NCBI GenBank assembly: GCA_016192455.1
Contig: JACPUC010000028.1
Location: 62,001-110,259, forward strand
Direction: 5' to 3'
DNA length: 48,259 bases
Origin: Candidatus Tectimicrobiota bacterium
GTDB taxonomy: Bacteria; JACPUC01
The notes under the pieces were generated by a model. The model was not told the origin of the DNA. It did not search any database and was given only the letters and a program-made list of their open reading frames with translations. The translations under genes were made by a program, and so were the position numbers. Positions 20,318 through 47,644 of the stretch are shown here, piece by piece; position 1 is the stretch's first letter; each line of letters opens with the position of its first letter.

Positions 20318-20335
20318 CTCGTTTCCGAAGCAATT

Positions 20336-22417: not shown

Positions 22418-22459
22418 CGAACGATCGCGCCGGGGTTCAACCCCCTTCTGGATGCGTGT

Positions 22460-30374: not shown

Positions 30375-30451
30375 GCGCCAGTAGCTCAGCAGGACAGAGC
30401 AGCGGACTTCTAATCCGCAGGTCGCAGGTTCGAGCCCTGCCTGGCGCGCCA
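30375..30451 (+). tRNA. tRNA-Arg(TCT)
   Basis: GCGCCAG/CTGGCGC acceptor stem, GCGGA-CTTCTAA-TCCGC anticodon arm, GGTTCGAG T-loop, encoded CCA. Confidence 0.97.
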
Positions 30452-30580: not shown

Positions 30581-30610
30581 TGAAGTTCCCCCGAAAGCGG
30601 GGGAACTTCA
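30581..30610. terminator. perfect 13-bp hairpin just after the grdB-like stop (terminator or stabiliser)
   Basis: TGAAGTTCCCCCG-AAAG-CGGGGGAACTTCA between the convergent tRNA-Arg and grdB-like genes; no clear U-tract. Confidence 0.6.
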
Positions 30611-30611: not shown

Positions 30612-31943
30612 TCACACGGGGGCAACCCAGTCAAAGATGCGCGGCGCCTGGACTTCGGTTGTCAGCGCTTGGGTTGCCACCTCCACGAGGGCGCGGCGGA
30701 ATTTTCGCTCCTCCTCTTCAGGCAAGTCGGGATTGCCGACCGGATGGGTGATGCCGGCGCCTCTGATGATGCGTGGCGCACCCACCATCATGGCCACGGA
30801 GGTCAGGGTGGCGATGAGTGCGGTCGGCAGGCCGTTGGCCTCCAGCTCCTTCGCCATCGCTGCCCCGCAGCGCACCCCGGTGCCTCACGTGGCGGTGAGG
30901 ATGACGCCGTGCACGCCGTGGGCGCGCAGTTCCTGCGCGATGCCACGGGCCATCGCTTGCGCCTTCTCGAGGTAGGTGGCGCAGCCGGCGGTGGTGTAGA
31001 GTCGATCATGCAGCGCGCCGATGGCCCCCGCCCGCTCCAGCTCCCGCAGTACGTCGAGCGGCACGAGGCGATTCGGGTTGTCGAGCGCATGCGTCTTGTC
31101 ATAGCCGGCGTGGATCGTTTCGTATCTTCCGGCCTCGAACTGGTCCTCCCGCCCGATCTCATAGGAGGCGTAGCGGCTCGACCGCAGGGACGGCAGGTGA
31201 TCAGGGTTGCCGCGCGGCACCAGGCCGCTCTCCGTCACCAGGGCGAGGCGCGCCCGCCGCAGATCGGCCAGCGGGGGAGCGCAGGTCACGAGAGGAGGCG
31301 GCTGGAAGGGGACCTCCGTCTTGAACGCTTCTCCCGCCAGCTTGCGCAGGAGCATGGTGACAGCGCGCTGCGAGGCGAGCTCGGTCTGGGGGACGTTGAC
31401 GCGGACGCCGCGCGGCAGGCAGCCCTCCGCCTCGCCGCCGAGGAGGGCTTCCCCCCGTCCCAGCCGCAACGCCAGGGCCGCCATGGTGGTCAGCGCCTGC
31501 CGCATGGACGAGGCGCTGGGACCGGTGCGGACGATGGCGAGGGAACGTGAGCGCCGAAAGAACTCAGCGGCGGGGTTCTCTTCATGCAGCCCGGTAAGGG
31601 CAGGAATCCCGAAGCGCTCATGCACCGCCGTGCACATGGCACCGCAGGCCAACCCGTAGCGCCCGGCGTTGAAGGCCGGCCCGGCGATGAAGAGCGCGGC
31701 ATCGCAGGCCTGCATGAGTTCGAGGGCACAACGCACCGCGCGCTCCTCCTGCTCGGCCACATAGTTGTCGCCGCAGATGATCGTGGCGACAATCCGCGCC
31801 TGCTGGCCGAGCTTCTCCTGCAAGGAGACTCCGGGGCCGACGGGACCTTCCCGCAGCCGCGGCTCGAGATGCGCCTGCGATTCGCCTCCAAGCTGCCCGA
31901 AGAACTGGTTCAGGTAGTGCACGATCCTGATGGGCGGGCTCAC
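30612..31943 (-). CDS. glycine/sarcosine/betaine reductase selenoprotein B-like subunit (GrdB/GrdF/GrdH family), 443 aa, Sec at residue 353
   Basis: ORFs 30885-31943 and 30612-30875 join in frame through TGA 30885-30887: ILTAT-U-GTGVRCGAAMAKELE; IVHYLNQFFG, GPAFNAGRYG, VPRGNPD, THPVGNP motifs. Confidence 0.93.
30858..30872 (-). promoter_or_regulatory. candidate SECIS hairpin of the grdB-like gene
   Basis: CGCTGC-GGG-GCAGCG, 12 nt 3' of the UGA on the minus strand. Confidence 0.55.
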
Positions 31944-32048
31944 CGTGCGTGCCCCCTTATTTCACGTAGACGGGTGCGAGGGAGCCGCGCCCCCTCGCGC
32001 TCCCCTATTACGCAAGCTGCCGCGCAGCTTGCGGCGAGATCGTAGCTC

Positions 32049-33308
32049 TCACAGTGGCACAGCGCGCAGCCGGGTGAAGCCGAGGGAGCTGTTGCTGTTG
32101 GGGATGTAGGAGATGGAGACAGTGGTTGCGGCATGCGGGTCGCCGTTGATGGCGGCGAAGGTGTCCCCTCCCAGGAGGCGCGAGGCCGCCGGCAGGTGGA
32201 CGCGCTCCTCGATGTTGCCGGCGCTGACGATGGCGTCGGCGGCCGCCCGCAGGTCGATGAGCGGCAGACCCTCTCCCGCTTCGTTGAGCTGTTCGCTGTC
32301 GATGAGGACGGTTTTCACGCCGGCACGCTCGCAGGCCTCGCAGTGTTCCATCAGGTCGTAGTCGCCGGCGCCGGCCGCCTCCTTGGTCATCACCACCCCG
32401 TCCGCCCGCAGCGTCTGCCGCAGCAGGCGCGCCGCCAAGCGGGCCGCGCGCTGCTTGTCCTCCAGGCGGACCGGCTGCGGGGCGAGCACCAGGCCGCGGA
32501 AGTCGAGCTGCTCGCCGTGCAGCCGCAGGAGATCCTCGACGAGTGGATGGCGTTGGTAGGAGTAGGTGTTGTTCTTTACTCCCGGAGGCATGTCGTAGTG
32601 GAACGAGACGACCGCGCCATCGAGCATCTCCGTCGGTTGCAAGAGGAACGGCAGGGCCTCCCGGATGCGCGCGCCGTAAACGAAGGTCTCGCGCAGGTCG
32701 CCGATGCCGTGGAGGAGGCAGAGGTAGGCCACCTTGGGGAGCGGAGAGGCGAGGGCGCCGTCGCCACTGCGAGGGTAGGTCTCGCGCCGCGGCGCGGGAT
32801 TGCCGAGCGCCAGGCGGGCAAGGTAGACCGCCGCCCGCAGACCCGCCGCGCGCACGGCCCGGCAGTAGGCGAGCTTGTTCATGCCGGCGGCCGGCCTGGT
32901 GCGCAGGACGACCTGGTGCAGATCGGCAAGGGGGGTGAGCTGGCGGGTTTCGGCATGCAGGTCGAGGAGGCCGCCGACAACGCCGGCCATCTCTCCCGTT
33001 TCAACCACGGCGACGCCGCGCAGCACCCTGGTCACGCCTTCCCCCACCAACCCCGGCGGCGCCACCCAGGAGGGGAAATAGGACCCATCCTCCTTAACGC
33101 AGGGCTCGCAGATGTCAAGGACGTTGAGGATGCGCGACCCATCCCCCGGCGCGGCCAGCTCGACGCGCACCTCGGCGAGACCGCTGCGCTCTTCAAGGTG
33201 GCGCTCGAGTTCGGCGCGGTCGATGACGAGCGTCGTTCCCCGCAAGCAGGAGGCGGGGCCGAAGCAAACCGCCTCGATCGGGTAGAGCTGCTTCTCTAGC
33301 GTCAGCAT
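32049..33308 (-). CDS. glycine/sarcosine/betaine reductase component B proprotein-like subunit (GrdE/GrdG/GrdI family), atypical
   Basis: VELAAPGDGSRI..VLDICEP, GEGVTRVLRGVAVV, AVRAAGLRAAVYLA, QPTEMLDGAVVS, KNNTY..QRHPLV, ADAIVSAGN; lies upstream of the grdB-like gene. Confidence 0.88.
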   Translation of the reverse strand: MLTLEKQLYPIEAVCFGPASCLRGTTLVIDRAELERHLEERSGLAEVRVELAAPGDGSRILNVLDICEPCVKEDGSYFPSWVAPPGLVGEGVTRVLRGVAVVETGEMAGVVGGLLDLHAETRQLTPLADLHQVVLRTRPAAGMNKLAYCRAVRAAGLRAAVYLARLALGNPAPRRETYPRSGDGALASPLPKVAYLCLLHGIGDLRETFVYGARIREALPFLLQPTEMLDGAVVSFHYDMPPGVKNNTYSYQRHPLVEDLLRLHGEQLDFRGLVLAPQPVRLEDKQRAARLAARLLRQTLRADGVVMTKEAAGAGDYDLMEHCEACERAGVKTVLIDSEQLNEAGEGLPLIDLRAAADAIVSAGNIEERVHLPAASRLLGGDTFAAINGDPHAATTVSISYIPNSNSSLGFTRLRAVPL

Positions 33309-33334
33309 GAGGCTCTTCCCTGGCAACCGGGGAC

Positions 33335-35083
33335 TCAGGCGCGGCGCGTCCACTTGCGCAGCGCCTCCGTGGCCGGCAGATCGACGTTCAAAGTGAGCGG
33401 GTCAATGACCACCCCGTACAGCTCGCGCGCCGCCGCCGGGGTCACGTAGCCATTCGCCACGTCGTCCGCGACCAGCTCGATGGCGCGCTCGAAGGGATCG
33501 CCGAAGCCTCCCCCGCCGCTCGAGGCGACTTCGAGCACGTCGCCGCTGCGCAGTTCGTAGAGGGCGTTGACGTCGATCTCCCGCTCCGTCCCATCCGGGC
33601 GTCGCAGGCTCAGGTGCGAGAGGACGCCGCCGCGGCCGCCGGCCAGGCCCGGCGGCGTGGTCTCGGGGCGCAGGCCCCCGCCGGCGGTGGCGCAAAGCAC
33701 CTGGTCCGTCTCCATGCGCCAAATCGCCCTCGTCCCCAGCCCGCCCCGCCACTTGCCGGCGCCGCCGCTGTCCGGACGGTATTCATAGAGAAGCTGGGTG
33801 TACGGGTAAACAAACTCGAAGAGCTCGGGGTCCGCCGCACGTGCTCCGCCGGAGGAGCTGATGGGGCCGATGTGCCCCCAGCCATCGTAGCCCTCCGTCG
33901 CGCCCGACCCCGGCTTGCACTGGTTGCTCAAGCTCGCCGTCCAGCGGCCGGTGCGGGGATTGTAGGCCGTCTTCATGGGGCCGCACCAGCGGCCCCAGGG
34001 GGCCTGCACCTGGCTGGGCACGGCTTGCGCCAGGGCCAGCCAGCCGGCCTCGACCAGGGCGGCGCAGGTGACGAGGGTGCAGCCGCTGGTGGCGGCGGGC
34101 GGACGCGGGTTGGTGACGGTCCCGTCGCGGGAGATGACGGAGACGGGCGCGGTCGAGCCGGCCGTCACCGGCACCTCATCCTGGAGCGACGAGAAGAGGG
34201 CGATGTAGGTGCAGGAGGTGGTGTTCGACAGCGGGCTGTTCACGTAGCCCTTCACTTGGGGGTCGGATTCGGAGTAGTCGAAGGTGATCGCGTCCTCGTT
34301 GACGGTGAGGGTCAGGCGGACGCCGACGAGGCGGTCCTTGACGATGCCGTCGTGATCCAAGAACCGCTCCGCCTTGTAGACGCCGTTCGGGATGCGGCGG
34401 ATTTCGCGCCGCATCTGCTCCTCGGTACCTTTCAGGTAGGTCTCGATGGCCGTCCCGACCAACGCCATGCCGAACTTCGCGGCCAGCCCCTGGAGTCGGC
34501 GCTCACCCACCACGCAGGCGCCGATCTGGCACTGCAGGTCGCCCTCGACGATGTCCGCCAGGCGGATGTTGAGGAGGAGGAACTCCCACAGATCGCTGCG
34601 CCGCACTCCCCCCTCGTACAGCTTTACGGGAGGGATGCGGATGCCTTCCTCCCAGACGTTGCTGGCCTCCGGGTTGTACCCCGACGATCCCTTCGCCCCC
34701 ACGTCGGCGTGGTGCCCGCGCGTCATCACCCAGAAGGCGACGTCGCCGGCGACCATGACCGGTTTGGCGACGGTGAAGTCGGGAAGGTGATTGTTGCCGT
34801 GGAAGGGGTCGTTGAGGAGGTAGACGTCGCCGTCGCGGATTTCCTCCCGAAAGCGCGCCGCGATGGCATCCATGGCGAACGGCGTCGATCCCATGAGAAC
34901 GGGGATGAACGCCGTTTGGGCGACGAGGCGCCCCTGGCGGTCGAAGATGGCGGTGATGAAGTCACGCACCTCGCTGAAGATCGGCGAGCGCGAGGTGCGC
35001 AGCATGCTCTCGGCCATCTCGCGGGTCACCGTCTGCAAGGTGCTGACAATCAGCGCCAACTGAATGGGGTCTGGCTTGGTCAT
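33335..35083 (-). CDS. hydantoinase B / oxoprolinase beta subunit (HyuB/OplB family)
   Basis: RTSRSPIFSEVRDF, GDVYLLNDPFHGNNHLPD, GHHADVG, EGIRIPPVKL, DSGGAGKWRGGLG, SGGGGFGDP; ATGA overlap with subunit A. Confidence 0.95.
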   Translation of the reverse strand: MTKPDPIQLALIVSTLQTVTREMAESMLRTSRSPIFSEVRDFITAIFDRQGRLVAQTAFIPVLMGSTPFAMDAIAARFREEIRDGDVYLLNDPFHGNNHLPDFTVAKPVMVAGDVAFWVMTRGHHADVGAKGSSGYNPEASNVWEEGIRIPPVKLYEGGVRRSDLWEFLLLNIRLADIVEGDLQCQIGACVVGERRLQGLAAKFGMALVGTAIETYLKGTEEQMRREIRRIPNGVYKAERFLDHDGIVKDRLVGVRLTLTVNEDAITFDYSESDPQVKGYVNSPLSNTTSCTYIALFSSLQDEVPVTAGSTAPVSVISRDGTVTNPRPPAATSGCTLVTCAALVEAGWLALAQAVPSQVQAPWGRWCGPMKTAYNPRTGRWTASLSNQCKPGSGATEGYDGWGHIGPISSSGGARAADPELFEFVYPYTQLLYEYRPDSGGAGKWRGGLGTRAIWRMETDQVLCATAGGGLRPETTPPGLAGGRGGVLSHLSLRRPDGTEREIDVNALYELRSGDVLEVASSGGGGFGDPFERAIELVADDVANGYVTPAAARELYGVVIDPLTLNVDLPATEALRKWTRRA

Positions 35084-37191
35084 CGGGAGGCCCCTCGGAG
35101 GCGGGCAAGGAGATCGTCGAGCGATGCTCCCGCCTGCAAGAGCAAGAAGTTGCCGTACTCGTCCACCTGCGCCTGGAAGGCCGGACTGATGACGATGCTG
35201 GTGGTCGGCAGCTCGATGATGGCGGGACCCTCGAGGCAATTGCCGTACTCGAGCCGCACGCCGTCGTAGACGGGCGTGAGGGTGGGGGTGGGATCGAAGA
35301 AGACCTGCCGCCGTTCGATCAACGCCGCCGTCGCCTCCCGGCCCCGCCGCGGCAGGCTCTTGAAGCGCGGCTTCTCCGTCATCCCCTCGGCGGTGAGGCG
35401 CACGGTGATGACCTCCATGGGCACCTTGGGCAGATGGTAGCCGAAGAGGGCGTCGTGGCGGTGATGGAACAGGGCGGCCACCCGCCGCAGCTCCTCCTCC
35501 GTCACCGGCGCGTCGCCGTGGGGGAGGTCGATCTCGACTTCGTTGAATTGCCCCTCGTAGCGCATCTCGAACGACACCGTCAGGCGCATCCTCGCCTCCG
35601 CCACCCCCTCGGTGCGGAGCATCGCCGTGCCCTCCGCGGTCATGGCCGCCAGGGTCTCGTTGAGGCGGGCGACGTTCACCTCCGACAGCCGGCCCGGCAT
35701 GGAGCGCACGAACTGGTGCTTCAGATCGGCCATCAGCATGCCGGCGCCGCAGAAGAGCGCCGATTCCTTCGGCACGATGATGAGGGAGATGTTAAGCTCG
35801 CGCGCCAAGGGTTCGGCGTGCAGCGGCCCCGCCCCTCCCGCGACCACCAAGGCGAACTCCCGCGGGTCGTGGCCGCGGCGCACCGACAGGAGGCGCATGG
35901 CCATCGCCATGGTGGTGTTGACGACCTTGTAGATGCCCCAGGCGGCCTCCTCGACGGTGAGTCCCAGGGGGCGCGCCGTGTGCTCCGCGATGGCGGCGCG
36001 GGCGCGGGCGGCATCGAGCAGCAGCTCGCCGCCGAAGAAGCGCTCCGGGTTGAGGTAGCCGAGCACCAGGTCGGCATCGGTGACGGTTGGCTTCTCGCCC
36101 CCGAAGGCGTAGCAGGCGGGACCGGGCATGGCGCCGGCGCTGGCCGGGCCGACGCGCAGCACGCCCGCGCCGTCCACCCAGGCGATGCTCCCGCCGCCGG
36201 CGCCGACCGTGTGGATGTCGAGGCTCTGCGCGGCGATCCGGTGCCCCCCCACCTCGGCCGCCGTGGTCAGCGACATCCTGCCGTGGTGGACCAGGGAGAC
36301 ATCGAAGCTCGTCCCCCCCATGTCGATGGTCATGAGCTCTTGCAGTCCGTGCTGTCGGCCATAGAACAGCCCGGCGACGGGACCCGCCGCGGGACCCGAC
36401 AGGAGCGTCTGCACCGCCAGGCGCTGCGACACCCGCGGCGCCACCACGCCGCCGTTCGATTGCATCAGCCGCAGCTCGCCGCGGAACCCCGCCGCCGCCA
36501 GGCGCTCCACGAGGTCGTCCAGGTAGGCGCTCAACACCGGCCCCACGGCCGCGTTCAGCACCACCGTGCTGGTGCGCTCATAGGCCCGCACCTGGGGCAG
36601 AATGGCGCTCGAGACCGAGAGGTAGCACGTCGGCAGGACTTCGCGACACAGCTCGTGGAGTCGCTCCTCGTGGGTGGAATTGAGGAACGAGAAGAGGAGG
36701 CTGATGGCGACCGCCTCGACGCCGCGCCGGCGGAACTGCTCGAGCGCCTCCCTGGCGCAGGTCTCATCCAGCGGCAGCACGACGGCGCCGTCGCGGTCGA
36801 CGCGCTCGCGCATGCCGGCGATGAGCGAGCGCGGCACCACCGGAGGCGGCGGGTTCACCTTGGCATAGTAGTAGGTCTCGCGCAGGCCGCGCCGCATCGC
36901 CAGGAGGTCCCGAAAGCCATCGGTAGTCAGCAGGGCGGTGCGGGCCAAGCGGCCCGTCAACACGGCATTGGTGGTGATGGTGGTGCCGTGGACGATGAGG
37001 CTGACGCTGCCGAGAAAGGTGGGGAGATCGCTGCCGAAGGTTGCGGCGGCCTTCCCCAGGCCGTCGATCACCGCCTTGGCGGGGGATTCCGGAGTGCTGA
37101 GCACCTTGAAGAGCCGGCTCTGGCCCTGCTCGTCCATGACCACGAAATCGGTGAACGTCCCCCCGACATCGATTCCAACCTTGACTCGCAT
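35080..37191 (-). CDS. hydantoinase A / oxoprolinase alpha subunit (ATP-dependent, HyuA family)
   Basis: GIDVGGTFTD, HGTTITTNA, YERTSTVVLNA, LSGPAAG, DMGGTSFD, GAGGGSIA, GPACY, PTVTDADL, GGAGPLH. Confidence 0.96.
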   Translation of the reverse strand: MRVKVGIDVGGTFTDFVVMDEQGQSRLFKVLSTPESPAKAVIDGLGKAAATFGSDLPTFLGSVSLIVHGTTITTNAVLTGRLARTALLTTDGFRDLLAMRRGLRETYYYAKVNPPPPVVPRSLIAGMRERVDRDGAVVLPLDETCAREALEQFRRRGVEAVAISLLFSFLNSTHEERLHELCREVLPTCYLSVSSAILPQVRAYERTSTVVLNAAVGPVLSAYLDDLVERLAAAGFRGELRLMQSNGGVVAPRVSQRLAVQTLLSGPAAGPVAGLFYGRQHGLQELMTIDMGGTSFDVSLVHHGRMSLTTAAEVGGHRIAAQSLDIHTVGAGGGSIAWVDGAGVLRVGPASAGAMPGPACYAFGGEKPTVTDADLVLGYLNPERFFGGELLLDAARARAAIAEHTARPLGLTVEEAAWGIYKVVNTTMAMAMRLLSVRRGHDPREFALVVAGGAGPLHAEPLARELNISLIIVPKESALFCGAGMLMADLKHQFVRSMPGRLSEVNVARLNETLAAMTAEGTAMLRTEGVAEARMRLTVSFEMRYEGQFNEVEIDLPHGDAPVTEEELRRVAALFHHRHDALFGYHLPKVPMEVITVRLTAEGMTEKPRFKSLPRRGREATAALIERRQVFFDPTPTLTPVYDGVRLEYGNCLEGPAIIELPTTSIVISPAFQAQVDEYGNFLLLQAGASLDDLLARLRGASR

Positions 37192-37296
37192 GGTCACCCT
37201 CGACTTCGCTCCCCACCCCTTGCCGCCGAGCGCCCGAGATGGCGACGCCTGATCGCCGCGTCCGACACCCCGAACTTTTTCCCTCAACCTTTCTGC

Positions 37297-37357
37297 TTGA
37301 CACAGAGACGCGCTTTAGGTAGAAGGGATTTTAGACCGACCAGTCGGTCAATGTAAA
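37297..37357. promoter_or_regulatory. overlapping divergent promoters with a palindromic TetR operator candidate
   Basis: Plus strand TTGACA (37297), 17 nt, TAGAAG; minus strand TTTACA (37357-37352), 18 nt, TAAAAT (37333-37328); palindrome GACCGAC-CA-GTCGGTC at 37334-37349. Confidence 0.75.
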
Positions 37358-37525
37358 GCCGAAAAGGCACCCTGAGCTGCTGCGCCCCTGACCCGTGAGG
37401 CGCTGCTGGAGACGCTTCCCAGGCGCGGCGCCCCCCCTCGGGAGCGACACGCGTAGGAGAACGCCAGCGCGCAGTAATTGCCGCCACCTCGCAGCTCCTC
37501 GGCCGTATGAACGAGAGGCGCAGCC

Positions 37526-38182
37526 ATGCCGCGGGTACAATCAAAAACGGACATCCTTGAGCGGCGACGACAGATCGCCCAGGCGGCATCGCGTGTCTTC
37601 AGCGAGAAGGGGTATGACGCCTGCACCCTGGATGACATTGCAGGGCTCCTGGACCTAAAGAAACCGTCCCTCTACTACTATATCAAGAGCAAAAAAGAGA
37701 TCCTCTCCATCGTCCTCGATTTCGCCATTTCCGAGGTCTCCAGCAATCTCGAAGCCATTTGCCAATCGCAGGTGGATCCGGCTGAGAAACTTCAACGCGC
37801 GGTGGCGAATCATTTGAATACCCTGATCCGCCACTTCCACCCCGTCCGCGTGTACCATAATGAACGCAAGGCCGTCTCCGCCAGCTACCTTTCAACCTAC
37901 ATTGCCAAACGTAAAAACTACGAGGTGATGTTTAAAGGTATCCTGCGCGAGGGAGTGCAAAAGAAACTCTTTTCGGTAAAGGATACCCGACTGACGACTT
38001 TTATGATTCTCGGCATGTGCAATTGGATCACGCAATGGTATCGACCCGGCGGGCCGCACACTCTTCCCGAAATTATTGGAGAGTTTACTGCCTTCATCCT
38101 CAGGGGCTTGGGATTAACGGGCAGAGCTGAAGACACCAATCGAAGAAGGCGAGGACGCAACGATGGACTACGATCTTCCTGA
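37526..38182 (+). CDS. TetR/AcrR family regulator with KstR2-like C-terminal domain
   Basis: FSEKGYDACTLDDIAGLLDLKKPSLYYYIKSKKEIL HTH; ILGMCNWITQWYRPGG. Confidence 0.93.
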   Translation: MPRVQSKTDILERRRQIAQAASRVFSEKGYDACTLDDIAGLLDLKKPSLYYYIKSKKEILSIVLDFAISEVSSNLEAICQSQVDPAEKLQRAVANHLNTLIRHFHPVRVYHNERKAVSASYLSTYIAKRKNYEVMFKGILREGVQKKLFSVKDTRLTTFMILGMCNWITQWYRPGGPHTLPEIIGEFTAFILRGLGLTGRAEDTNRRRRGRNDGLRSS

Positions 38183-39320: not shown

Positions 39321-39423
39321 CGGCCTCGCCCCCGACACCCAGCCGCGCTACGTACGGCCGGGCGGGCAACCGTGAACTGCAAATCCAGGCGGCGGGTCCT
39401 CATTCCTGAAGAGGAAGGCAACC

Positions 39424-40239
39424 GTGGCATACGAGAACATCAGGATCGAAACACAAGACAAAATCACCACCATCACCCTGAACCGACCCGAGCAACGCAA
39501 TGCCCTGAGCCCCGATTTGCACCGCGAGATGGATCGCGCGCTTGATGATCTCGCCGTTGACGAGGCAACGCGGGTCGTTGTCTTGACCGGCGAGGGAAAA
39601 GCCTTCTGTGCCGGGCAGGACCTGAAAAAGTTCTTCGCGGAGACGTATGATGATCCGCTGAAATCGAAGCACCTCACGGCCATCGCCATGCGCTGGGGTC
39701 GCAAGCTGCGCCTCTTCCCCCGCCCGACGATCGCCCGGGTGAACGGCTTTTGTTTCGGCGCCGGGCTGCGCATCATGGGCTTGTGCGACTTTGCCATCGC
39801 GGACGAGGCGGCGATCTTCGGTCTCTCCGAAATCAACTTCGGCATCATTCCGGCCGGCGGCGCGTCGAAAGTGCCGATTGACCTCCTCTCCCACCGTGAT
39901 GCCCTCTACCTCATTTTGACGGGAGACCGCATCGACGGGAAAGAGGCCGAGCGCATGCGGCTGATCAACCGCGCCGTTCCGGCCGACCAGCTTAACGGGG
40001 CGGTACGGCAGTTGGCCGACAAGCTCCTGCAAAAGAACCCCGTGGCGCTCACCGTGGCCAAGGAAGTCTTCTGGCGCGACAAGTATATGGAGTACGACGA
40101 GGCGGTTGATTGGGAGCTGGCCAAGTTTCAGGAGATGTCGAAGCTCGAGAAAGGAGAATGGGTGCAACAGGGCGTCGCGCAGTTTGTGAAAGGAGAGTAC
40201 AAGCCCGGCTTTGAAGCCTACAAGCGCAAGGAGGAATAG
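39424..40239 (+). CDS. crotonase superfamily enzyme, hydroxycinnamoyl-CoA hydratase/lyase (HCHL)-like
   Basis: LNRPEQRNALS, AFCAGQDLK, FGLSEINFG, KNPVAL, C-terminal YKPGFEAYKR resembling HCHL. Confidence 0.85.
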   Translation: MAYENIRIETQDKITTITLNRPEQRNALSPDLHREMDRALDDLAVDEATRVVVLTGEGKAFCAGQDLKKFFAETYDDPLKSKHLTAIAMRWGRKLRLFPRPTIARVNGFCFGAGLRIMGLCDFAIADEAAIFGLSEINFGIIPAGGASKVPIDLLSHRDALYLILTGDRIDGKEAERMRLINRAVPADQLNGAVRQLADKLLQKNPVALTVAKEVFWRDKYMEYDEAVDWELAKFQEMSKLEKGEWVQQGVAQFVKGEYKPGFEAYKRKEE

Positions 40240-40365
40240 CGGAGCAAGGATCCCAGTGCGGCAGCGCAGAAAGAAACGTGGTCGTCGATTAACCCGCGGT
40301 GCAAGTTTGCATGTGGGGTACCCTGCCTGGCAAGTGGTCCCGCATTGCAGGAGGGGGGTTCAGTG

Positions 40366-41568
40366 ATGAAGGGAAAAGAGTTACGGCTCATCGTCGTTGT
40401 GGTGTTGGCGGTGCTCGTGCTCACTGGTTGGAGCGTGCCGAATCTTCAGGCCCAAAACACCATCCAGATTGGCCTCCTCACCGAGTTCACCCTGCCCTTC
40501 CTGGCGGAATTCAGCAAGAACCAGCAGAAGGCGTTCGACATGGCGCTCGAGGAGGTCAATGCTGCTGGTGGCGTCATGGGAAAAAAGCTTGAGCTGGTGA
40601 CGGAAGAGGTCGGCGGCGGGCTGGACCAGGTTACTGCCGGGGCGGAGAAGCTCATCAGTCGCAAGCAAGTGCCGCTGATGATCAGCACTCAGTTCAGCAC
40701 CTTCACCCTGGCGTTGCAGAAGATTACCGAAGCCTACAAGGTCCCCCTCCTTGTCCCGATCTCCGGCTCCGATAAGATCACCGAGCAGAACTTGAAGTAT
40801 ACCTTCCGCATTTCGGCGCGCACCGGCATCGCATACGCCGGCATGATGGTGGAGTTCCTGAAGCGCTACGCCAAGCCGAAGAAAGTGGCGATCTTTTACG
40901 AGCAAGGGGGCTATGGGTCTGATTTTGGCCGCAAGGCCAAACTCCTGGTCGAGCAAGCGGGGTGGGAGATCGTCATGTTCGAGGGCTACAACCCGCGCGC
41001 CATCGACTTCAAGCCGCTGCTCACCAAAGCCAAGTCCATTCAGCCTGACGCCATCATGGTGGCAAACTTTTTCCTCGACGCCGTACTCATGATCCGCCAG
41101 GCAAAAGAGATCAACCTCAACACCCTGTGGATCGGCTCGCCGGGGTTCGGTTTTCCCCAGTTCCTTTCCAAGGACGGCGCCGGCAAAGATGCCGAGTACA
41201 TCTTCTCCATTCAGCAGTGGAACCCTAACGTGCCCTGGCCGGGTGCGAAAGAGTTTGCCGAGAAGTTCCGCAAGCGGTACAACATTGATCCCGATTGGAA
41301 TATCTCCCAACCCTACTACGCCATCCACTTCGTTGCCGACGTGCTGAAACGGGCAGGGTCGCTCGATCGCGAGAAGATCCGCGCCGCTCTCGTTGCCACG
41401 GACATCAAGGAGAGCATGTACGGGCCGATCAAGTTTGACGAACAGGGACAAAACCTGCATCCGGTGCTGGTCGCCCAGGTGCAGAACACGCAGTACGTCA
41501 TTGTCTACCCGACCGACCTCGCCCGTGGCAAGCCGAACCTGACGATTCCACCATGGGATAAGCGCTGA
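40366..41568 (+). CDS. Liv-type ABC substrate-binding protein
   Basis: Signal peptide; ALEEVNAAGGVMGKKL, KYTFRI, DFKPLLTK, GPIKFDEQGQN. Confidence 0.92.
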   Translation: MKGKELRLIVVVVLAVLVLTGWSVPNLQAQNTIQIGLLTEFTLPFLAEFSKNQQKAFDMALEEVNAAGGVMGKKLELVTEEVGGGLDQVTAGAEKLISRKQVPLMISTQFSTFTLALQKITEAYKVPLLVPISGSDKITEQNLKYTFRISARTGIAYAGMMVEFLKRYAKPKKVAIFYEQGGYGSDFGRKAKLLVEQAGWEIVMFEGYNPRAIDFKPLLTKAKSIQPDAIMVANFFLDAVLMIRQAKEINLNTLWIGSPGFGFPQFLSKDGAGKDAEYIFSIQQWNPNVPWPGAKEFAEKFRKRYNIDPDWNISQPYYAIHFVADVLKRAGSLDREKIRAALVATDIKESMYGPIKFDEQGQNLHPVLVAQVQNTQYVIVYPTDLARGKPNLTIPPWDKR

Positions 41569-41783
41569 GCAAGCGCGCCTCACTCCGCACCCTCATCGCC
41601 GTTGGCCGTTCGGGCGCTGCGAGGCAAGGGGGGCGCAGGTTCGCCGGCAAGAACGGCGTCCGCGCTCCCCTCCCTCCGGCGTTCCCGTCCCGGCCCTGTG
41701 GCTGATCGCGGTATCGCGACGAGTGCCGGCCGCGGCGTGGCGGCGGGAGTGCGGGGGGGGCGCGGAGAGAAACTAGGCTCGCC

Positions 41784-42647
41784 GTGATTGTCCTGCAAGT
41801 CCTCATCAATGGGTTGCTTACCGGCGGCATCTATTCGCTCATCAGCGTCGGCTTGGCGCTGATCCTGGGCACGATGCGCATCATCAACATCTTCCACGGC
41901 GAGTTGTTGATGATGGCGATGTACTTGACGTACTGGCTCTATCTCTACATTCATCTCGATCCATACGTCAGTGTGCTGATTACGGCTCCGGTGCTCTTCG
42001 GCTTCGGCTATGTCATGCAGCGCGTGCTGATAAACCGCGTTCTGGCGCAGCCCGAAGTCAATCAAGTGCTGTTAACGCTGGGTATCTCCATGGCCTTGAT
42101 CAATCTATTCCAGCTCTTCTTTTCACCAACATACCGGCAGGTGCGGACAGGGTATTCGACGGCGGTTTTGGCTTTTGCTGATGTGAGGATCAGTATTCCC
42201 TATACTATCTCTTTTATGCTTGCTTTCGCCTTCACGTTCCTTCTCTATAGCTTTCTCATCCGCACGTTCCCAGGGAAGGCTATTCGGGCAACGGCGCAGG
42301 ATCGTCAGGCTGCGGTCATGATGGGCGTCAACATTGCGACGGTGAACGCGATCTCCTTCGGCATCGGGGCCGCGCTGGCGGCCGCCGCCGGCTCGCTCCT
42401 GGTCCCCATCTACTACATTTTTCCCGGCGTCGGCTTTCCTTTTGCGATCAAGGCTTTTGTGGTAGTCGTGTTAGGGGGCATGGGGAGTGTTGTGGGAGCG
42501 GCGTTGGGCGGAATCATTTTCGGCGTGGTCGAAGCCTTGGGTTCCTTCTTTATCTCGACACGCTACACCGATGCCATCGGCCTGCTGATTTTCATCGTCA
42601 TCCTTCTGGTGCGCCCCGCCGGCCTCTTTGGGAGGTCGCGCGTATGA
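41784..42647 (+). CDS. Liv-type ABC permease (LivH-like)
   Basis: INGLLTGGIYSLISVGLALI, GKAIRATAQD, KAFVVVVLGGMGS, RPAGLFG. Confidence 0.93.
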   Translation: MIVLQVLINGLLTGGIYSLISVGLALILGTMRIINIFHGELLMMAMYLTYWLYLYIHLDPYVSVLITAPVLFGFGYVMQRVLINRVLAQPEVNQVLLTLGISMALINLFQLFFSPTYRQVRTGYSTAVLAFADVRISIPYTISFMLAFAFTFLLYSFLIRTFPGKAIRATAQDRQAAVMMGVNIATVNAISFGIGAALAAAAGSLLVPIYYIFPGVGFPFAIKAFVVVVLGGMGSVVGAALGGIIFGVVEALGSFFISTRYTDAIGLLIFIVILLVRPAGLFGRSRV

Positions 42648-43657
42648 AGGCAGCCTCCCTGTCGCGGCGCAGCGCTGGACGGATGCAAGGGCGTCGGTTC
42701 ACTCCCATGAATCTGCTGATAACCATGCCGCTTATCCTACTTCTCCTGCTCGGCGTTCCCTGGCTCGTGAGCAGCCCCTATTTCCTGGACATCGTCATCC
42801 TGATGCTGATGTACATGTTGCTGGGGATGAGCTGGAATCTTTTGGGAGGATTCGCCGGCCAGATCTCACTCGGTCATGCAATCTTCTTTGGCCTGGGTGC
42901 GTATTGCTACGGCTTTCTCATTAACCAGCACCTGACGTCGGTCTGGATCGCTCTTGCCAGCGGAGCGCTGGCGGCAACCGTGGCCTCGATCCCCATCGGC
43001 ATCCTCTGTTTTCGCCTGCGGGGTCCCTATTTCGTCCTCGTTACCCTGGCCGCCGCCGAGGTGGTCAGAATCCTCGCCGTCAACCTCGTCGACCTAACGC
43101 AAGGAGCCGAAGGGATGGTGATCACCCCCGCCTTCGGCATCAGCAAGACGCCGTACTACTACCTGGCCCTGGCCTTCGTCCTCCTTGAGTTGATCACCAT
43201 GGTCGTGCTCTGCAGTTCCCGCTTCGGTTACTACTACATGGCGGTGCGCGAGGATGAGGACACGGCGCTGGCGATCGGGGTGAATCCGCTGATCCATAAA
43301 CTCTGGGCCTTTGGCATCAGCGCCTTCTTCGCCGGTCTGACCGGCGCCTTCTATGCGAGTTACCGCCACGTCATTGATCCGTCAGTAGTCCTCTCTCTCG
43401 AACGTTCCGTCGACATCCTTCTCGGGCCGCTCGTCGGCGGCATTGGAACCTTGGCCGGCCCCTTGGTCGGCGCGGTTATCATGGTCAGCGTCAATGAAGG
43501 GTTGCGCTCTCTCTTGGGCGGCGCGTACCTGGTGGCCTACGGCCTCATTCTGGTCGTCATCGTGCTCTTCTTCCCCAGCGGCGTCCTGGGGGTGACCCAA
43601 CGGTTTTTCACCCGCGAAGCGGGCGGTGAGGCAGGCAAGGCCGATGAAGCTGCTTGA
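42644..43657 (+). CDS. Liv-type ABC permease (LivM-like)
   Basis: SWNLLGGFAGQISLGHA, RLRGPYFVLVTL, AVREDEDTA, GGIGTLAGP. Confidence 0.93.
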   Translation: MKAASLSRRSAGRMQGRRFTPMNLLITMPLILLLLLGVPWLVSSPYFLDIVILMLMYMLLGMSWNLLGGFAGQISLGHAIFFGLGAYCYGFLINQHLTSVWIALASGALAATVASIPIGILCFRLRGPYFVLVTLAAAEVVRILAVNLVDLTQGAEGMVITPAFGISKTPYYYLALAFVLLELITMVVLCSSRFGYYYMAVREDEDTALAIGVNPLIHKLWAFGISAFFAGLTGAFYASYRHVIDPSVVLSLERSVDILLGPLVGGIGTLAGPLVGAVIMVSVNEGLRSLLGGAYLVAYGLILVVIVLFFPSGVLGVTQRFFTREAGGEAGKADEAA

Positions 43658-44369
43658 AGTGCGGGACGTCCAGAAGCATTTCGGCGGGCTTGCGGCCATT
43701 CACGGCGTGTCGCTGTCGGTCGATGCCGGGGAGATCGTCAGCATCATCGGTCCCAACGGCGCCGGCAAGACAACCCTCTTCAACCTCATCAGTGGGTTCG
43801 AGCGTCCTGACGCGGGCACCATCTTCTTCAACGGTAACGAGATCAGCGGTCTGTCTCCGCACCAGATTTGCCGCAGGGGCATCGCCCGAACGTTTCAACT
43901 CGTCAAGCCTTTCCATAACCTGACGGTATGGGAGAACGTCATGGTGGCCGGCTTGATGAGGTTGAGCAAGCGCGACGCCGCACGCCAGGCCGATCGCATC
44001 CTGGCCCGGCTGCACCTGAGCGACCGCGCCGACCAGCGGGCGCGCAACCTGACCATCGGCGCCAAGAAGCGTCTGGAGGTGGCGCGCGCCCTCGCCACCC
44101 AGCCGCACTTCATCCTCCTCGACGAGGTCGTTGCCGGTCTCAACCAGCGCGAGACCGCCGACATGAGTGCCATCATCCGCGACCTGCGCCAGGAAGGCAT
44201 CTCCACGGTGGCGGCGGTCGAGCACGTCATGCAGATGGTGATGAGCGTCTCCGACCGCATCTACGTGCTGAACTACGGCGAATGCATCGCCGAAGGACGG
44301 CCGGACGAAATTCGCCGCAATCCCCATGTTCTCGAGGCCTACCTTGGAAGCGACGGTGCTCTCCGTTGA
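43644..44369 (+). CDS. Liv-type ABC ATPase (LivG-like)
   Basis: FGGLAA, GPNGAGKTT, GIARTFQ, LLDE, VEH, VLEAYLG. Confidence 0.94.
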   Translation: MKLLEVRDVQKHFGGLAAIHGVSLSVDAGEIVSIIGPNGAGKTTLFNLISGFERPDAGTIFFNGNEISGLSPHQICRRGIARTFQLVKPFHNLTVWENVMVAGLMRLSKRDAARQADRILARLHLSDRADQRARNLTIGAKKRLEVARALATQPHFILLDEVVAGLNQRETADMSAIIRDLRQEGISTVAAVEHVMQMVMSVSDRIYVLNYGECIAEGRPDEIRRNPHVLEAYLGSDGALR

Positions 44370-45102
44370 TGGGATAGACGTAGCGTACGGCGTCGGATTC
44401 CCGACCCTGCGCAACGTCTCGCTGCGCTTGCCCGAGGGGGAGATCATCGCCCTGGTGGGGAGCAACGGCGCCGGCAAGACCACGCTCCTCAATACCATCT
44501 CCGGATTGCTGCGGCCCTCGCGCGGCGGCATCAGGCTGCGCGATACCCCCCTCCACCTCCTCCCTCCCCATGAAGTGGCCGAGCTCGGCATCGCCCACGT
44601 GCCGGAAGGCCGCAAGCTCTTTCCCATGATGACGGTGGAAGAGAACCTGCACATGGGCGCCTATACGCGGCGTTCCCGGCCGCACCTGGCCGCCATGATC
44701 GAATCCGTCTACGATCTCTTCCCGGTGCTGCGGGACCGGCGGCGTCAGTACGCCCGCACCCTCAGCGGCGGCGAGCAGCAGATGGTGGCGATCGGCCGCG
44801 GCTTGATGTCGATGCCCGAGATCATCATGTTCGATGAACCCTCCCTCGGCCTGGCGCCGCTGATCGTGCGCGAGATGTTCGAGGTCATCAAGCGCGTCAA
44901 CGCCGAGGGGAAGACTGTCTTCCTGGTGGAACAGAACGTGCGCTTTGCCCTTGGCATCTGCCACTATGCCTACATTCTCGAACAAGGGCAGATCATCGGC
45001 AGCGGCAAGGGGCAAGACCTCCTGAACGACGAGTTCATTCAAACCTCGATCTTGGGGACGGGGTTGTCGAACTCCGGGATGGACAGTCAGGCCGACGCCT
45101 GA
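44356..45102 (+). CDS. Liv-type ABC ATPase (LivF-like)
   Basis: GSNGAGKTT, HVPEGRKLF, LSGGEQQM, DEPSLGLAP, LVEQN; GTG start inferred. Confidence 0.94.
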   Translation: MLSVDGIDVAYGVGFPTLRNVSLRLPEGEIIALVGSNGAGKTTLLNTISGLLRPSRGGIRLRDTPLHLLPPHEVAELGIAHVPEGRKLFPMMTVEENLHMGAYTRRSRPHLAAMIESVYDLFPVLRDRRRQYARTLSGGEQQMVAIGRGLMSMPEIIMFDEPSLGLAPLIVREMFEVIKRVNAEGKTVFLVEQNVRFALGICHYAYILEQGQIIGSGKGQDLLNDEFIQTSILGTGLSNSGMDSQADA

Positions 45103-45215
45103 GGCTCACATCGAGGCGGCTGCTTCCGGCGCGGCGTTCTTCCGGTCGCGCCGGCCGTCGCGAAGAGGCCACGGTTGCCCCGGGGTCGGGCAGCCTCCCC
45201 CCATGGGATCACAAT

Positions 45216-46628
45216 ATGGATGAGCGTCTGCGCGCCTTGATGTTCCCCCGCTCGATCGCCGTGATTGGGGCCTCGGCCAATCTCGCCACCATCGGCGGGC
45301 GCCCCCTGCGCCTGCTGCGCAAGCACGGCTTCAAGGGAAACCTCTACCCGGTGAACCCGAAGTACGCGGAGATCGACGGCCTGCGCTGCTACCCCTCCAT
45401 CGGCGCGGTGGGCGAGGCGATCGATTGCGCCCTCATCGCCTTGGGACGCGACCAGGTCATCCCGGCGCTGGAAGCGTGCGCCGCGGCGGGAGTGCGCGCG
45501 GCCACGGTCTTCTCGAGCGGCTTCGCGGAGGTGGGCGGCGAGGGTACCCGCCTGCAACAGGAGATGACCAACCTCGCCCGCCGCACCGGCCTGCGCATCA
45601 ACGGCCCGAACGGCATGGGCGTGATGAACTTCAAGGAGGGCGTGGTGGCGACGTTCTCCAATTCCGCCGAGCTGGAGCGGGTGCGGCCCGGCAACCTCGC
45701 CCTGGTGGCGCAGAGCGGCGGCCTGGCCGGAGCCTTGCTCGACCGCTCCCACGAGCTCGGCCTGGGCGTGAGCCACGTCGTCTCCACCGGCAACGAGGCC
45801 GACGTGGAGGCGAGCGAGTACCTCGAGTACCTCGTCGAGGACCCAGCCACCGAGGTGGTCGGGGCCTACATCGAGGGATTTCGCAACGTGGAACGGTTAG
45901 GCCGGGTCTGCGAGCGCGCGGCGCAGAAGCGCAAACCGATCATCGTGCTGAAGGCCGGCAGCTCCACGATCGGGAGGGAGATGGCGGCCTCGCATACCGC
46001 CGCCGCCACGGGCTCCGACGACATCTACAACACCTTCTTCCGCCGCCACGGCATTATCCGCGTCGCTGACCTCGACGAGCTCATGGGCACGGCCTCCCTG
46101 CTGACACGCTACCGGCACGCCGCCGGCACGCGCCTGGGGGTCTTTTCCGCCTCGGGCGGAGCCGCGGTGCTCATCGCCGACGAGTGCGCGCGGCACGGCA
46201 TCGAGCTGCCACCGCTCGCCCGGGAGACACAGCAGGCGCTCGCCCCGCTCGTGGGCGCCTTCTCCACCCTGATGAATCCCTTTGACCCCACGGGACAGAG
46301 CTACAACGATCCCAGTCTGGTCAAGACGACCTTTGAAATCTTTCTCCGAGACCCGAATTTCGATTGGATTCTCTTCCTCATACCCACGGTGGCCCTGCGC
46401 ATGGCCGACCTCTTCGTCGACTACCTCCTCGACACCGCGCCGCAAACGAGCAAGCCGGTGCTGGTCTACTGCATCGGAGGGTCCCTGTCGAGCCCGGTCT
46501 TCACGGCCTTGCGCGACAGTCCCCTGCCCTACTACCGGTCGCTCCGCACCTGCTTCCAGGCCTTGGCGGCCGCCCTGCGCTACCAAGACTTCCTCGGCAA
46601 GCGGCAGCACGCGAAGGGGTTGCGATGA
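45216..46628 (+). CDS. NDP-forming acyl-CoA synthetase alpha-type subunit (CoA-binding and ligase domains, no ATP-grasp)
   Basis: PRSIAVIGAS, YPVNPK, SSGFAE, GPNGMG, VAQSGG, STGNEAD, AASHTAA (phospho-His), SGGAAVL, NPFD. Confidence 0.9.
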   Translation: MDERLRALMFPRSIAVIGASANLATIGGRPLRLLRKHGFKGNLYPVNPKYAEIDGLRCYPSIGAVGEAIDCALIALGRDQVIPALEACAAAGVRAATVFSSGFAEVGGEGTRLQQEMTNLARRTGLRINGPNGMGVMNFKEGVVATFSNSAELERVRPGNLALVAQSGGLAGALLDRSHELGLGVSHVVSTGNEADVEASEYLEYLVEDPATEVVGAYIEGFRNVERLGRVCERAAQKRKPIIVLKAGSSTIGREMAASHTAAATGSDDIYNTFFRRHGIIRVADLDELMGTASLLTRYRHAAGTRLGVFSASGGAAVLIADECARHGIELPPLARETQQALAPLVGAFSTLMNPFDPTGQSYNDPSLVKTTFEIFLRDPNFDWILFLIPTVALRMADLFVDYLLDTAPQTSKPVLVYCIGGSLSSPVFTALRDSPLPYYRSLRTCFQALAAALRYQDFLGKRQHAKGLR

Positions 46629-47644
46629 TGGATGTGAAATTTGGAGCTAGCTTCGTTCCCTGTCAGCCCGATGAGCTGGCGCGGCTCTGCGTCACCGCCG
46701 AGGACGCAGGCTACGACCGCCTCGGCCTCGTCGATTCGCAGAGCATCTACCGCGAGCTGTGGGTGAGTTGCACCGTGGCGGCCAGCCACACCACGCGCAT
46801 CAAGGTGGGGCCGCGCGTCACCAATCCGATCACCCGCCACCTCTCCGTCACCGCCAGCGCCGCCGCCACCTTGGAGGAGCTGGCGCCGGGGCGCATCTTC
46901 CTCGGCCTCGGCAGCGGCGACAGCGCCCTGGGCAACATCGGCCTGCGGGCGGCTTCCCTGAGCGAGATGGAGGAAGCGATTCACGCCGCGCGCGCCTTGA
47001 TGACCGGCTCGGCGGCCGCCTACCACGGCCGGAGCTGCGCCATGCCCTGGTCGCGCCGCGCCGTGCCGATCTACATGTCCGCTCACGGGCCGAAGTCCCT
47101 GCGCCTGGCCGGGCGGGTTGCCGATGGGGTGGTGATCGGCACCGGGCTAAATAGGGAGGCGGTCGCCTACAGCCTGGAGATGATCCAGCAGGGCGCCGAG
47201 GAGGGCGGCCGCCGCCTGGCCGACCTCGACCTCTGGTGGCTCTCCACTTGCAACCTGGCGGCCAGCCGGGTGGCCGCCATCGCCGAGGTGCGCATGCTGC
47301 TGGCGGCAAACGCGCACGTGCTGCCGAATCAAGTGCGCAACCCCGCCCTCGTGCCGCCGCGCTACAGTGAGGCAATCGCCACCCTGGCGCGCGAGTATGT
47401 CATCTCCGAGCACCTCATGCCCGGCGCCGCGCGCACGAACGTGCAACTCGTGCAGCGGCTCGGCCTCGAGGACTACCTCGCCGAGCGCTTCGGCATCGTC
47501 GGCACGCCCGACGACTGCCTGCGCCAGATCGAGCGCGCCCTGAACGCCGGGGCCAATCAGTTGTGGATGAGCATCTACTTTCCGCACCGGCAGAGCTTCA
47601 TGGAGCGCTGGGGGAGGGAGATCATCGCGCGGTTCCAGGGATGA
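46625..47644 (+). CDS. LLM-class flavin/F420-dependent oxidoreductase (Mer-like)
   Basis: AEDAGYD...DSQ, VTNPITRH, GRIFLGLGSGD, GPKSLRLAGRVADGV, VGTPDDC; ATGA overlap with the ligase stop. Confidence 0.9.
   Translation: MMDVKFGASFVPCQPDELARLCVTAEDAGYDRLGLVDSQSIYRELWVSCTVAASHTTRIKVGPRVTNPITRHLSVTASAAATLEELAPGRIFLGLGSGDSALGNIGLRAASLSEMEEAIHAARALMTGSAAAYHGRSCAMPWSRRAVPIYMSAHGPKSLRLAGRVADGVVIGTGLNREAVAYSLEMIQQGAEEGGRRLADLDLWWLSTCNLAASRVAAIAEVRMLLAANAHVLPNQVRNPALVPPRYSEAIATLAREYVISEHLMPGAARTNVQLVQRLGLEDYLAERFGIVGTPDDCLRQIERALNAGANQLWMSIYFPHRQSFMERWGREIIARFQG

Follow-up and report, generated by a model that had tools for sequence, protein, structure and literature searches.

The stretch of DNA analysed here, referred to as the window, comprises 48,259 nucleotides of contig JACPUC010000028.1 (positions 62,001 to 110,259, forward strand) in assembly GCA_016192455.1 of a Candidatus Tectimicrobiota bacterium. 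Two divergent gene arms occupy window positions 30,612 to 47,644. The minus-strand arm places genes for a hydantoinase-type amidase (hyuA and hyuB) next to a grdE-like and a grdB-like gene, which resemble the two subunits of 'protein B' in the glycine, sarcosine and betaine reductase (Grd) family. The plus-strand arm begins with a tetR gene and continues with an acyl-CoA dehydrogenase (ACAD), a crotonase (ECH) of the hydroxycinnamoyl-CoA hydratase/lyase (HCHL) type, a Liv-type importer, a CoA ligase alpha subunit and a luciferase-like oxidoreductase (LLM). An earlier note, made from the letters and their open reading frames alone, had described both arms in this way, including the ATGA overlap of hyuA and hyuB. 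Its gene assignments are borne out: every Pfam family that it named was recovered in its place in both arms, the overlap lies at 35080-35083, and the HCHL-like crotonase is supported by PRK09120.

The host assembly consists of 31 contigs totalling 4.46 Mb, with an estimated completeness of 88% and a GC content of 0.67, and the genome was detected in groundwater metagenome runs. Logan contigs from one run (X1, possibly the source sample) span 31975-36081 and 36192-38861 independently of the assembly. Two further runs, X5 (soil) and X6 (groundwater, from another study), contain pieces of 200-400 nt that are 96-99% alike and spread across both arms; they derive from an identical or very similar strain and are no sign of independent conservation. 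The features of the minus-strand arm are as follows.

30581..30610, minus strand: stem-loop with a 13-bp stem (fold compared with shuffles)
30612..31943, minus strand: grdB-like selenoprotein gene, 443 amino acids (Pfam GRDB, 433 bits; TIGR01918, 462 bits)
32049..33353, minus strand: grdE-like subunit gene, likely 419 amino acids from the ATG at 33308 (Pfam Gly_reductase, 313 bits)
33335..35083, minus strand: hyuB, hydantoinase B or caprolactamase beta-like, 582 amino acids (PF02538 Hydantoinase_B, 495 bits)
35080..37191, minus strand: hyuA, hydantoinase A or caprolactamase alpha-like, 703 amino acids (Hydant_A_N, Hydantoinase_A and Hydant_A_C)
37328..37357, minus strand: sigma-70-like site facing hyuA, TTTACA, 18 nt, TAAAAT (10 of 12 consensus positions)
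37334..37349: perfect 16-bp palindrome GACCGACCAGTCGGTC, a probable TetR operator, inside the promoter spacer

The amidase and reductase genes form one compact, operon-like unit that runs from the sigma-70-like site to the stem-loop. The hyuA stop and hyuB start share 4 nt, the hyuB stop precedes the likely grdE start by 26 nt (the database copy of the GrdE-like protein also has 419 amino acids), and 105 nt separate grdE from grdB; our scan shows no internal promoter-like or terminator-like site from hyuB to the end of grdB. The stem-loop begins 2 nt past the grdB-like stop and folds better than any of 200 shuffled sequences (centroid −23.7 kcal/mol, z = −4.53). Transcription of the unit probably ends at this hairpin, which is followed by no U-tract and which the terminator scan missed because there is no T-run.

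A non-canonical selenocysteine reductase pair beside an amidase

The grdE- and grdB-like genes encode a selenocysteine (Sec) protein B module of the glycine, sarcosine and betaine reductase family. All three scores for the family (PF07355, PF09338 and TIGR01918) pass their cut-offs (22 for GRDB, 22.2 for Gly_reductase and 65 for TIGR01918). The scores against models of individual enzymes stay under the equivalog or exception cut-offs, both for the GrdB-like protein (GrdF, 472 against 800 bits; GrdH, 439 against 775; GrdB, 413 against 602) and for the GrdE-like protein (GrdG, 217 against 780; FarE, 146 against 675), with GrdF and GrdG as the best NCBIfam rows. The grdB-like gene contains a single in-frame TGA (30885-30887), which corresponds to U353; the 90 residues beyond it align with the family C terminus, and the protein read through the codon covers positions 4-434 of the 435-position GrdF model. 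A TGA is present at the equivalent position in all 202 GrdB genes that we censused.

Two hallmarks of the canonical enzymes are missing. The Sec motif of the window protein is U-G-T-G-V-R-C, in which the first Cys of the canonical U-x-x-C-x-x-C is gone and the second is kept; in the census, UGTCTRC accounts for 163 genes and UGTGTRC for 23. The GrdE-like protein reads VSFHY.MPPG against the canonical VSGN|CVSAC and therefore has no Asn-Cys self-cleavage (pyruvoyl) site: both conserved positions hold Cys in 141 of 178 aligned GrdE-type genes and are Y and G in the window. Loss of the first Cys in GrdB accompanies a GrdE without the pyruvoyl Cys. Genes with UGTCTRC were paired with C/C GrdE genes 129 times and with F/S genes 14 times, and a C/C GrdE gene accompanied a different GrdB motif in only 3 cases (one UGTGTRC and two UGTDTRC). 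Of the 150 cluster representatives (at 50% identity) closest to the window GrdE, 9 have Cys at the pyruvoyl site and 103 have Y, F, H or W, so the unstudied branch may exceed the studied one in diversity.

Phylogenetic trees (FastTree) that kept every fourth canonical row for GrdE and every third for GrdB agree with this division. The window proteins are sister to those of a paralogous pair on contig C5 of the same genome in both trees (starred values of 100 for GrdE and 98 for GrdB). The window pair falls within a starred set of 29 rows in the GrdB tree, all of them non-canonical, and outside the single clade that holds the 36 pyruvoyl-Cys rows in the GrdE tree, next to which lies the F/S clade; tree rows were labelled by motif, and placement relative to the named GrdF and GrdH clades follows the hidden Markov model scores only. 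Judged from scores, motifs and trees, the pair is none of GrdF/G, GrdB/E or GrdH/I in their canonical forms and belongs to a large, non-canonical and unstudied Grd branch, and the description of the enzyme as an atypical Grd-type selenoenzyme holds on all these counts.

The neighbouring amidase genes encode complete A and B subunit domains on adjacent, coupled genes. The best NCBIfam rows are the caprolactamase subunits CapA (693 bits for HyuA) and CapB (395 bits for HyuB), both under the equivalog cut-off of 1000, and the nearest solved structures match HyuA almost equally well (caprolactamase 6yra_A, 484 bits; N-methylhydantoinase 7hk5_A, 458 bits). HyuAB is thus assigned by homology to the family of ATP-dependent cyclic-amide hydrolases that includes caprolactamase, N-methylhydantoinase and 5-oxoprolinase, and by its scores it is an equivalog of no characterised member. 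Listed relatives of HyuB comprise four proteins at 78-85% identity, after which identity drops to 54%; 3213 relatives have E ≤ 1e-60, at about 50% identity.

Paralogous pairs and partner proteins in the host genome

The genome contains three GRDB matches above the cut-off, each of which adjoins a Gly_reductase gene and has one in-frame TGA. Besides the window pair, a second (C5:54600-59200; locus L024, 7622-12132) is transcribed away from a gene for an XDH-type molybdopterin subunit, and a gene for an AMP-binding ligase comes after the pair. The third (C31:27300-31000; locus L023, 7344-11008), with the motif UGTSTRC, is directly 3′ of an isochorismatase-family hydrolase that weakly resembles biuret hydrolase (90 bits) and RutB (80 bits), both below the cut-offs. 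The GrdE paralogs on C5 and C31 likewise lack the pyruvoyl Cys. Several substrate-specific B complexes that feed one reductase are a design already described for this family, in the sections of PMC10838667 that deal with it.

Partner proteins are encoded at a distance from the window. The only GrdA of the genome has one TGA within a canonical CxxU motif (ECFVUTAAGAMD), and the only GrdC scores 646 bits (cut-off, 450). Both lie on C1:113000-121300 (locus L022), beside genes for an Acg-type FMN oxidoreductase and a DUF255 thioredoxin-like protein that could together be the electron-donor system; neither trxB nor trxA was seen among the genes scanned at this locus. SelA, SelB, SelD and tRNA-Sec are all encoded in the genome. 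The SelD gene (C3:190907-191827) itself carries one in-frame TGA and is probably a Sec-containing selenophosphate synthetase. The genome-wide complement to which the earlier note had pointed is therefore present in GrdA, GrdC and the Sec machinery; GrdD had no match in the 88% complete genome. Two genes for heme-copper oxidase subunit I indicate that the host is not a classical Stickland fermenter.

The divergent promoter region and the plus-strand arm

The intergenic region between hyuA and tetR is 333 bp in length. A promoter scan of this region yields one minus-strand sigma-70-like site, compared with a mean of 0.1 sites in shuffled sequences, and the 18-nt spacer of this site is occupied by the palindrome, which has 1 perfect copy in the 4.46-Mb genome (approximately 0.003 expected, by arithmetic from GC content). 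One further copy, with one mismatch, was found on contig C3 (C3:114212); we rejected it as an operator, given its GC-rich surroundings and its overlap with the 3′ end of a 172-codon reading frame. A plus-strand promoter (TTGACA at 37297-37302, 17 nt, TAGAAG) was recognized by eye only and was missed by the scan; the palindrome would sit at about its +1 position. The idea that a single palindrome overlaps both promoters consequently stands for the minus-strand spacer, and for the plus strand it depends on a promoter placed by eye. The adjoining regulator scores 60 bits against the NCBIfam FadR model (cut-off, 200), and its nearest relatives in the PDB are 3dcf, 3vpr, KstR2 and FadR, the last two being acyl-CoA-sensing TetR regulators. 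A unique palindrome in the hyuA promoter spacer next to a FadR-like TetR makes control of the hyuA unit by this regulator plausible, a reasonable reading of the architecture.

The plus-strand arm contains the following genes.

37526..38182, plus strand: TetR-family regulator with a FadR/KstR2-like C-terminal domain (TetR_N, TetR_C_24)
38163..39320, plus strand: ACAD (best model acryloyl-CoA reductase, 299 bits, under the cut-off of 640)
39424..40239, plus strand: HCHL-type crotonase (PRK09120, 317.5 bits, above the cut-off of 276)
40345..45102, plus strand: Liv-type (HAAT) ABC importer of five genes (Peripla_BP_6, two BPD_transp_2, two ABC ATPases), namely a binding protein at 40345-41568, permeases at 41784-42647 and 42644-43657, and ATPases at 43626-44369 and 44326-45102
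45216..46628, plus strand: ADP-forming acyl-CoA synthetase (ACS), alpha-type subunit (Succ_CoA_lig/CoA_binding; TIGR02717, 372 bits, under the cut-off of 567)
46625..47644, plus strand: F420-type LLM, 339 amino acids (Bac_luciferase)

The start of the ACAD gene overlaps the 3′ end of tetR by 20 nt, and the LLM start overlaps the stop of the acyl-CoA synthetase gene in an ATGA. The crotonase matches HCHL chains in the PDB (2vss and 2j5i) at about 210 bits, and a comparison of this protein with plasmids returned 309 records, all below 60% identity. No ATP-grasp partner for the acyl-CoA synthetase alpha subunit was found in the window.

Base composition separates the two arms. The minus arm has a GC content of 0.693 (genes, 0.69-0.70), at the 85th percentile of 6-kb genome windows, and with a GC content of 0.589 the block from tetR to livM ranks among the lowest 1.3% of the 4286 such windows. 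Along the plus arm, GC content is 0.525 in tetR, 0.593 in ACAD, 0.599 in the crotonase gene and 0.556-0.606 in livK, livH and livM; it rises to 0.636-0.637 in livG and livF, to a genome-typical 0.681 in the acyl-CoA synthetase gene and to 0.700 in the LLM gene. This gradient suggests that the plus arm is itself composite and that most of it was acquired. We infer that the two arms probably differ in history: the tetR-ACAD-HCHL-Liv block is most likely of foreign origin, arrived later beside the minus arm and does not share a pathway with it.

Neighbourhoods of related genes were compared by tblastn of all window proteins against the flanks of 193 other Grd loci. These comprised 80 genome and 79 metagenome loci (the matches listed in scans with a GrdB alignment, mostly canonical clostridial ones), 14 loci from Actinomycetota (a GrdE match was present in 15 of 401 genomes, and two unpublished genomes were left out) and 20 from Desulfobacterota (21 of 401 genomes matched, at 28 places, of which the first 20 were used). 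Relatives of the Liv ATPases occur in 12 of the 80 genome loci and 3 of the 79 metagenome loci; in Desulfobacterota, 2 of the 20 loci have a complete Liv-type transporter immediately upstream of grdE. Relatives of ACAD, ECH, ACS and LLM are nearly absent from the 193 flanks, with one ECH in a metagenome locus and one weak ACAD in Actinomycetota. Of the route that had been proposed for the whole locus (import, ring opening, CoA activation and Sec-dependent cleavage), the HyuAB-Grd unit is therefore retained; the plus arm, with its low-GC block and rarely recurring genes, probably lies outside it.

Other features lie nearby or share the low GC content. Just past the end of the grdB operon, and on the other strand, lies a tRNA-Arg(TCT) gene (30375-30451). 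Insertions often occur at tRNA genes; no integrase was seen near this one. Upstream of the tRNA gene are an MsrPQ-like pair (Oxidored_molyb, 28714-30012; Ferric_reduct, 27974-28714) and a second Liv-type binding protein (26286-27503), and positions 19188-24548 encode two PCP_red-domain proteins, an NUBPL/ParA-type iron-transfer ATPase and a UbiD-family decarboxylase. Elsewhere in the assembly, GC content reaches its minimum of 0.48-0.53 over approximately 13 kb (C1:1-13000), probably a foreign island.

Mechanism, alternatives and known systems

The interpretation that we favour, with modest confidence, is that hyuA, hyuB, grdE and grdB form an operon whose GrdEB product uses a pyruvoyl-free attack by Sec, as in GrdHI and FarBE, with GrdA and GrdC acting in trans and TetR as repressor. 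HyuAB would open a hydantoin-like or lactam ring at the cost of ATP, giving an N-carbamoyl- or N-acyl-amino acid. Sec353 would attack the alpha-carbon of a substrate X-CH(R)-COO− directly, without a Schiff base, as is proposed for betaine reductase GrdHI and FarBE; this substrate would be the product of HyuAB, as its simplest source, or another alpha-substituted carboxylate. An amide-type nitrogen in the HyuAB product cannot form an imine, which would explain the missing pyruvoyl group. The resulting carboxyalkyl selenoether would be handed to GrdA and from there to GrdC, each encoded elsewhere in the genome, and without GrdD the product would leave as a free acid or CoA ester and not as acetyl phosphate. 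Repression of the operon would come from the divergent FadR-like TetR, bound to the palindrome within the promoter spacer. That the HyuAB product is indeed the substrate of the GrdEB reductase is a tentative and somewhat doubtful component of the scheme, and we consider it quite unlikely that the enzyme goes on to cleave the C-alpha-N bond of that product, releasing urea or an amide through GrdA and GrdC without GrdD.

A number of observations weigh against this interpretation, most of them concerning conservation. The earlier note had looked to a recurrence of Hydantoinase_A/B with GrdE and GrdB genes across genomes, and such recurrence proved rare. HyuA or HyuB relatives occur in the flanks of only 1 of the 193 other Grd loci (0 of 80 in genomes, 0 of 79 in metagenomes, 1 of 14 in Actinomycetota and 0 of 20 in Desulfobacterota), so the combination is not broadly conserved. 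The one positive locus (L199/L229) has the order grdE-grdB-grdC-trx-grdA followed, after about 1.5 kb, by hyuA-hyuB, and its HyuAB is only 30-37% identical to that of the window. Close relatives are known from short metagenome contigs only. The closest, with 79% identity in GrdE and 73% in GrdB, both have as their longest Logan contig one of 9043 bp, and the HyuB relatives at 78-85% identity are on contigs of 2.4-4.0 kb. The 9043-bp contig is absent from the HyuB clusters listed, a weak negative given that a truncated HyuB would escape the search; HyuAB may be missing from this contig or cut off on it. Amide-bond hydrolases were found near 4 of the 29 annotated non-canonical pairs (the window, C31, L108 and L229), and the neighbours of these pairs are otherwise varied, including DASS symporters, TRAP and TctABC transporters, SGL lactonases with aminotransferases, and XDH-type genes. 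GrdD could lie in an assembly gap, because the genome is 88% complete. Finally, the RNA following the UGA folds no better than shuffled sequences (z = 0.86) and no fold resembling a Sec insertion element stands out there; by eye only, a short hairpin is common to the window and the C5 paralog, with a similar one in C31.

Some of these neighbourhoods merit description. The nearest relative outside the genome, on a metagenome contig (L108, 3086-11278), has a TRAP transporter, an opine dehydrogenase and an Amidohydro_1 gene, the last directly upstream of a non-canonical grdE and grdB, with a GrdC gene and a partial second GrdB also upstream. At this locus another amide or ring-opening hydrolase occupies the position that HyuAB has in the window. 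XDH-family genes occur near 3 of the 29 non-canonical pairs (C5, L220 from Desulfobacterota, and L205). In Actinomycetota, four non-canonical Grd operons (L201-L204) are regularly flanked by SMP-30/gluconolactonase-like (SGL) genes; three of them also carry a class-III aminotransferase gene, and two carry a short-chain dehydrogenase gene. A metagenome scan with a single GrdE protein gave 40 pattern matches, with no relative among them, and none of the 40 genomes listed as relatives of the host, which share only the domain with it, gave a match. Overall, the pairing of HyuAB with Grd genes is rare.

This rarity would be expected if the genes were co-transcribed without sharing a pathway, acting on unrelated substrates through a lineage-specific accident of adjacency, with GrdEB serving, for example, as a betaine-like or alpha-substituted-acid reductase. 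The single occurrence among the 193 other loci speaks for this explanation, as do the sister paralog on C5, which has an XDH-type enzyme and an AMP-ligase as its neighbours instead, and the many HyuB relatives at about 50% identity, of which the three actinobacterial loci fetched are not beside Grd genes. It is nonetheless rather unlikely: an accident does not readily account for such tight spacing (the 4-nt overlap and the gaps of 26 and 105 nt) between one promoter-like site and one terminal hairpin, or for the amide-bond hydrolases that adjoin non-canonical pairs in three other, unrelated contexts (C31, L108 and L229). We judge it unlikely, too, that all 17 kb constitute one co-regulated route from Liv import through HyuAB ring opening and CoA activation with beta-oxidation to C-N cleavage by GrdEB. 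The arms do diverge around one genome-unique palindrome, the 20-nt overlap of tetR and ACAD suggests that the plus-arm genes may share the regulator, that regulator resembles acyl-CoA sensors, and Liv-type transporters recur upstream of grdE in the two Desulfobacterota loci. In the caprolactam catabolism of Pseudomonas jessenii, beta-oxidation reportedly comes after the caprolactamase step. That pathway starts with caprolactamase, according to portions of PMC8453981 and PMC6061476, and offers a precedent for such a route. Against it stand the low GC content of the tetR-livM block compared with the minus arm and with the ACS and LLM genes (0.68-0.70), the near absence of ACAD, ECH, ACS and LLM relatives from other Grd flanks, and the lack of an ATP-grasp partner in the window for the ACS alpha subunit. 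Grd-type chemistry, moreover, requires a leaving group next to a free carboxylate and not a CoA ester, and there is no chemical tie between the CoA and beta-oxidation genes and a Grd-type reaction. The foreign composition of the block from tetR to liv leaves a single 17-kb pathway unproven.

The least probable alternative, and a very improbable one, is the known creatinine and N-methylhydantoin route, with HyuAB as N-methylhydantoinase and GrdEB as the sarcosine reductase GrdFG. The isochorismatase family includes N-carbamoylsarcosine amidase, and a member of this family lies beside the C31 paralog; the route also gains from GrdF (472 bits) and GrdG (217 bits) as best rows and from the 458-bit match of HyuA to a solved N-methylhydantoinase. 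The earlier note had itself named this route, with canonical GrdF/G, as a competing account, and the locus does not fit it: both Grd scores are far under the respective cut-offs of 800 and 780, the pyruvoyl site is absent and the Sec motif is altered. The missing Cys is required for glycine and sarcosine in the mechanism set out in the relevant part of PMC10838667. Both trees put the pair outside the clade with all pyruvoyl-Cys rows, and neither carbamoylsarcosine amidase nor creatinine deaminase was found in the window.

Textbooks treat Grd-type selenoenzymes as markers of anaerobes that carry out Stickland fermentation. In the present case the pyruvoyl-free branch occurs three times in one groundwater bacterium with heme-copper oxidase genes, and a ring-opening ATPase in the same operon provides a biochemical handle that narrows the substrate search to the products of cyclic-amide hydrolysis. 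If Sec does cleave the product of HyuAB, Grd chemistry would not be confined to amines, betaines and fluoroacetate or to Stickland fermenters. We found no paper that ties glycine reductase to hydantoinase genes, and the titles and opening lines of abstracts in the literature on the GrdB/GrdE family mention neither such a branch nor a link to HyuAB. Among the texts consulted, a GrdE-type subunit free of the pyruvoyl group is described in the FarBE paper alone (PMC10838667). A 2026 review, in the text seen (PMC13188914), covers the classical enzyme only.

Compared with CapAB of P. jessenii (6yra) and with N-methylhydantoinase (7hk5), the window amidase has a common two-subunit A/B architecture, similar subunit sizes and full-length matches; it differs in that the window contains no aminotransferase or carbamoylase partner and a Grd pair comes next instead. 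With GrdB/GrdE and GrdF/GrdG of Peptoclostridium and Acetoanaerobium, the reductase pair shares the same two full-length Pfam families and a Sec at the same position, and the host genome keeps GrdC and the C-x-x-U motif of GrdA. It differs from them in the absence of Asn-Cys from GrdE, in having UxxGxxC and not UxxCxxC, and in a locus that has no grdX, trxB, trxA or grdD, GrdA and GrdC being on another contig.

The closest parallels are GrdH/GrdI and the fluoroacetate system FarB/FarE, with which the window pair has in common a Sec in the GrdB-type subunit and a GrdE-type subunit with no self-cleavage Cys and no pyruvoyl group. For betaine and fluoroacetate the substrate brings its own leaving group and no Schiff base is needed; FarB of Cloacibacillus porcorum is described as having no CxxC, and FarE, similar to grdI, as having neither Cys (all from sections of PMC10838667). 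The GrdB-like protein of the window retains the second Cys, in contrast to FarB as described in that source, and the pair lies outside the F/S-type clade that we take as GrdI-like. The host also differs in its heme-copper oxidase genes and in the failure to find GrdD. As in those systems, GrdA and protein C are shared and the B modules that supply them are substrate-specific, but the neighbour in the window is an HyuAB amidase and not a transporter or a radical-SAM gene. The Grd protein-B family itself was already known; what is new here is a non-canonical protein-B module joined to an HyuAB amidase.

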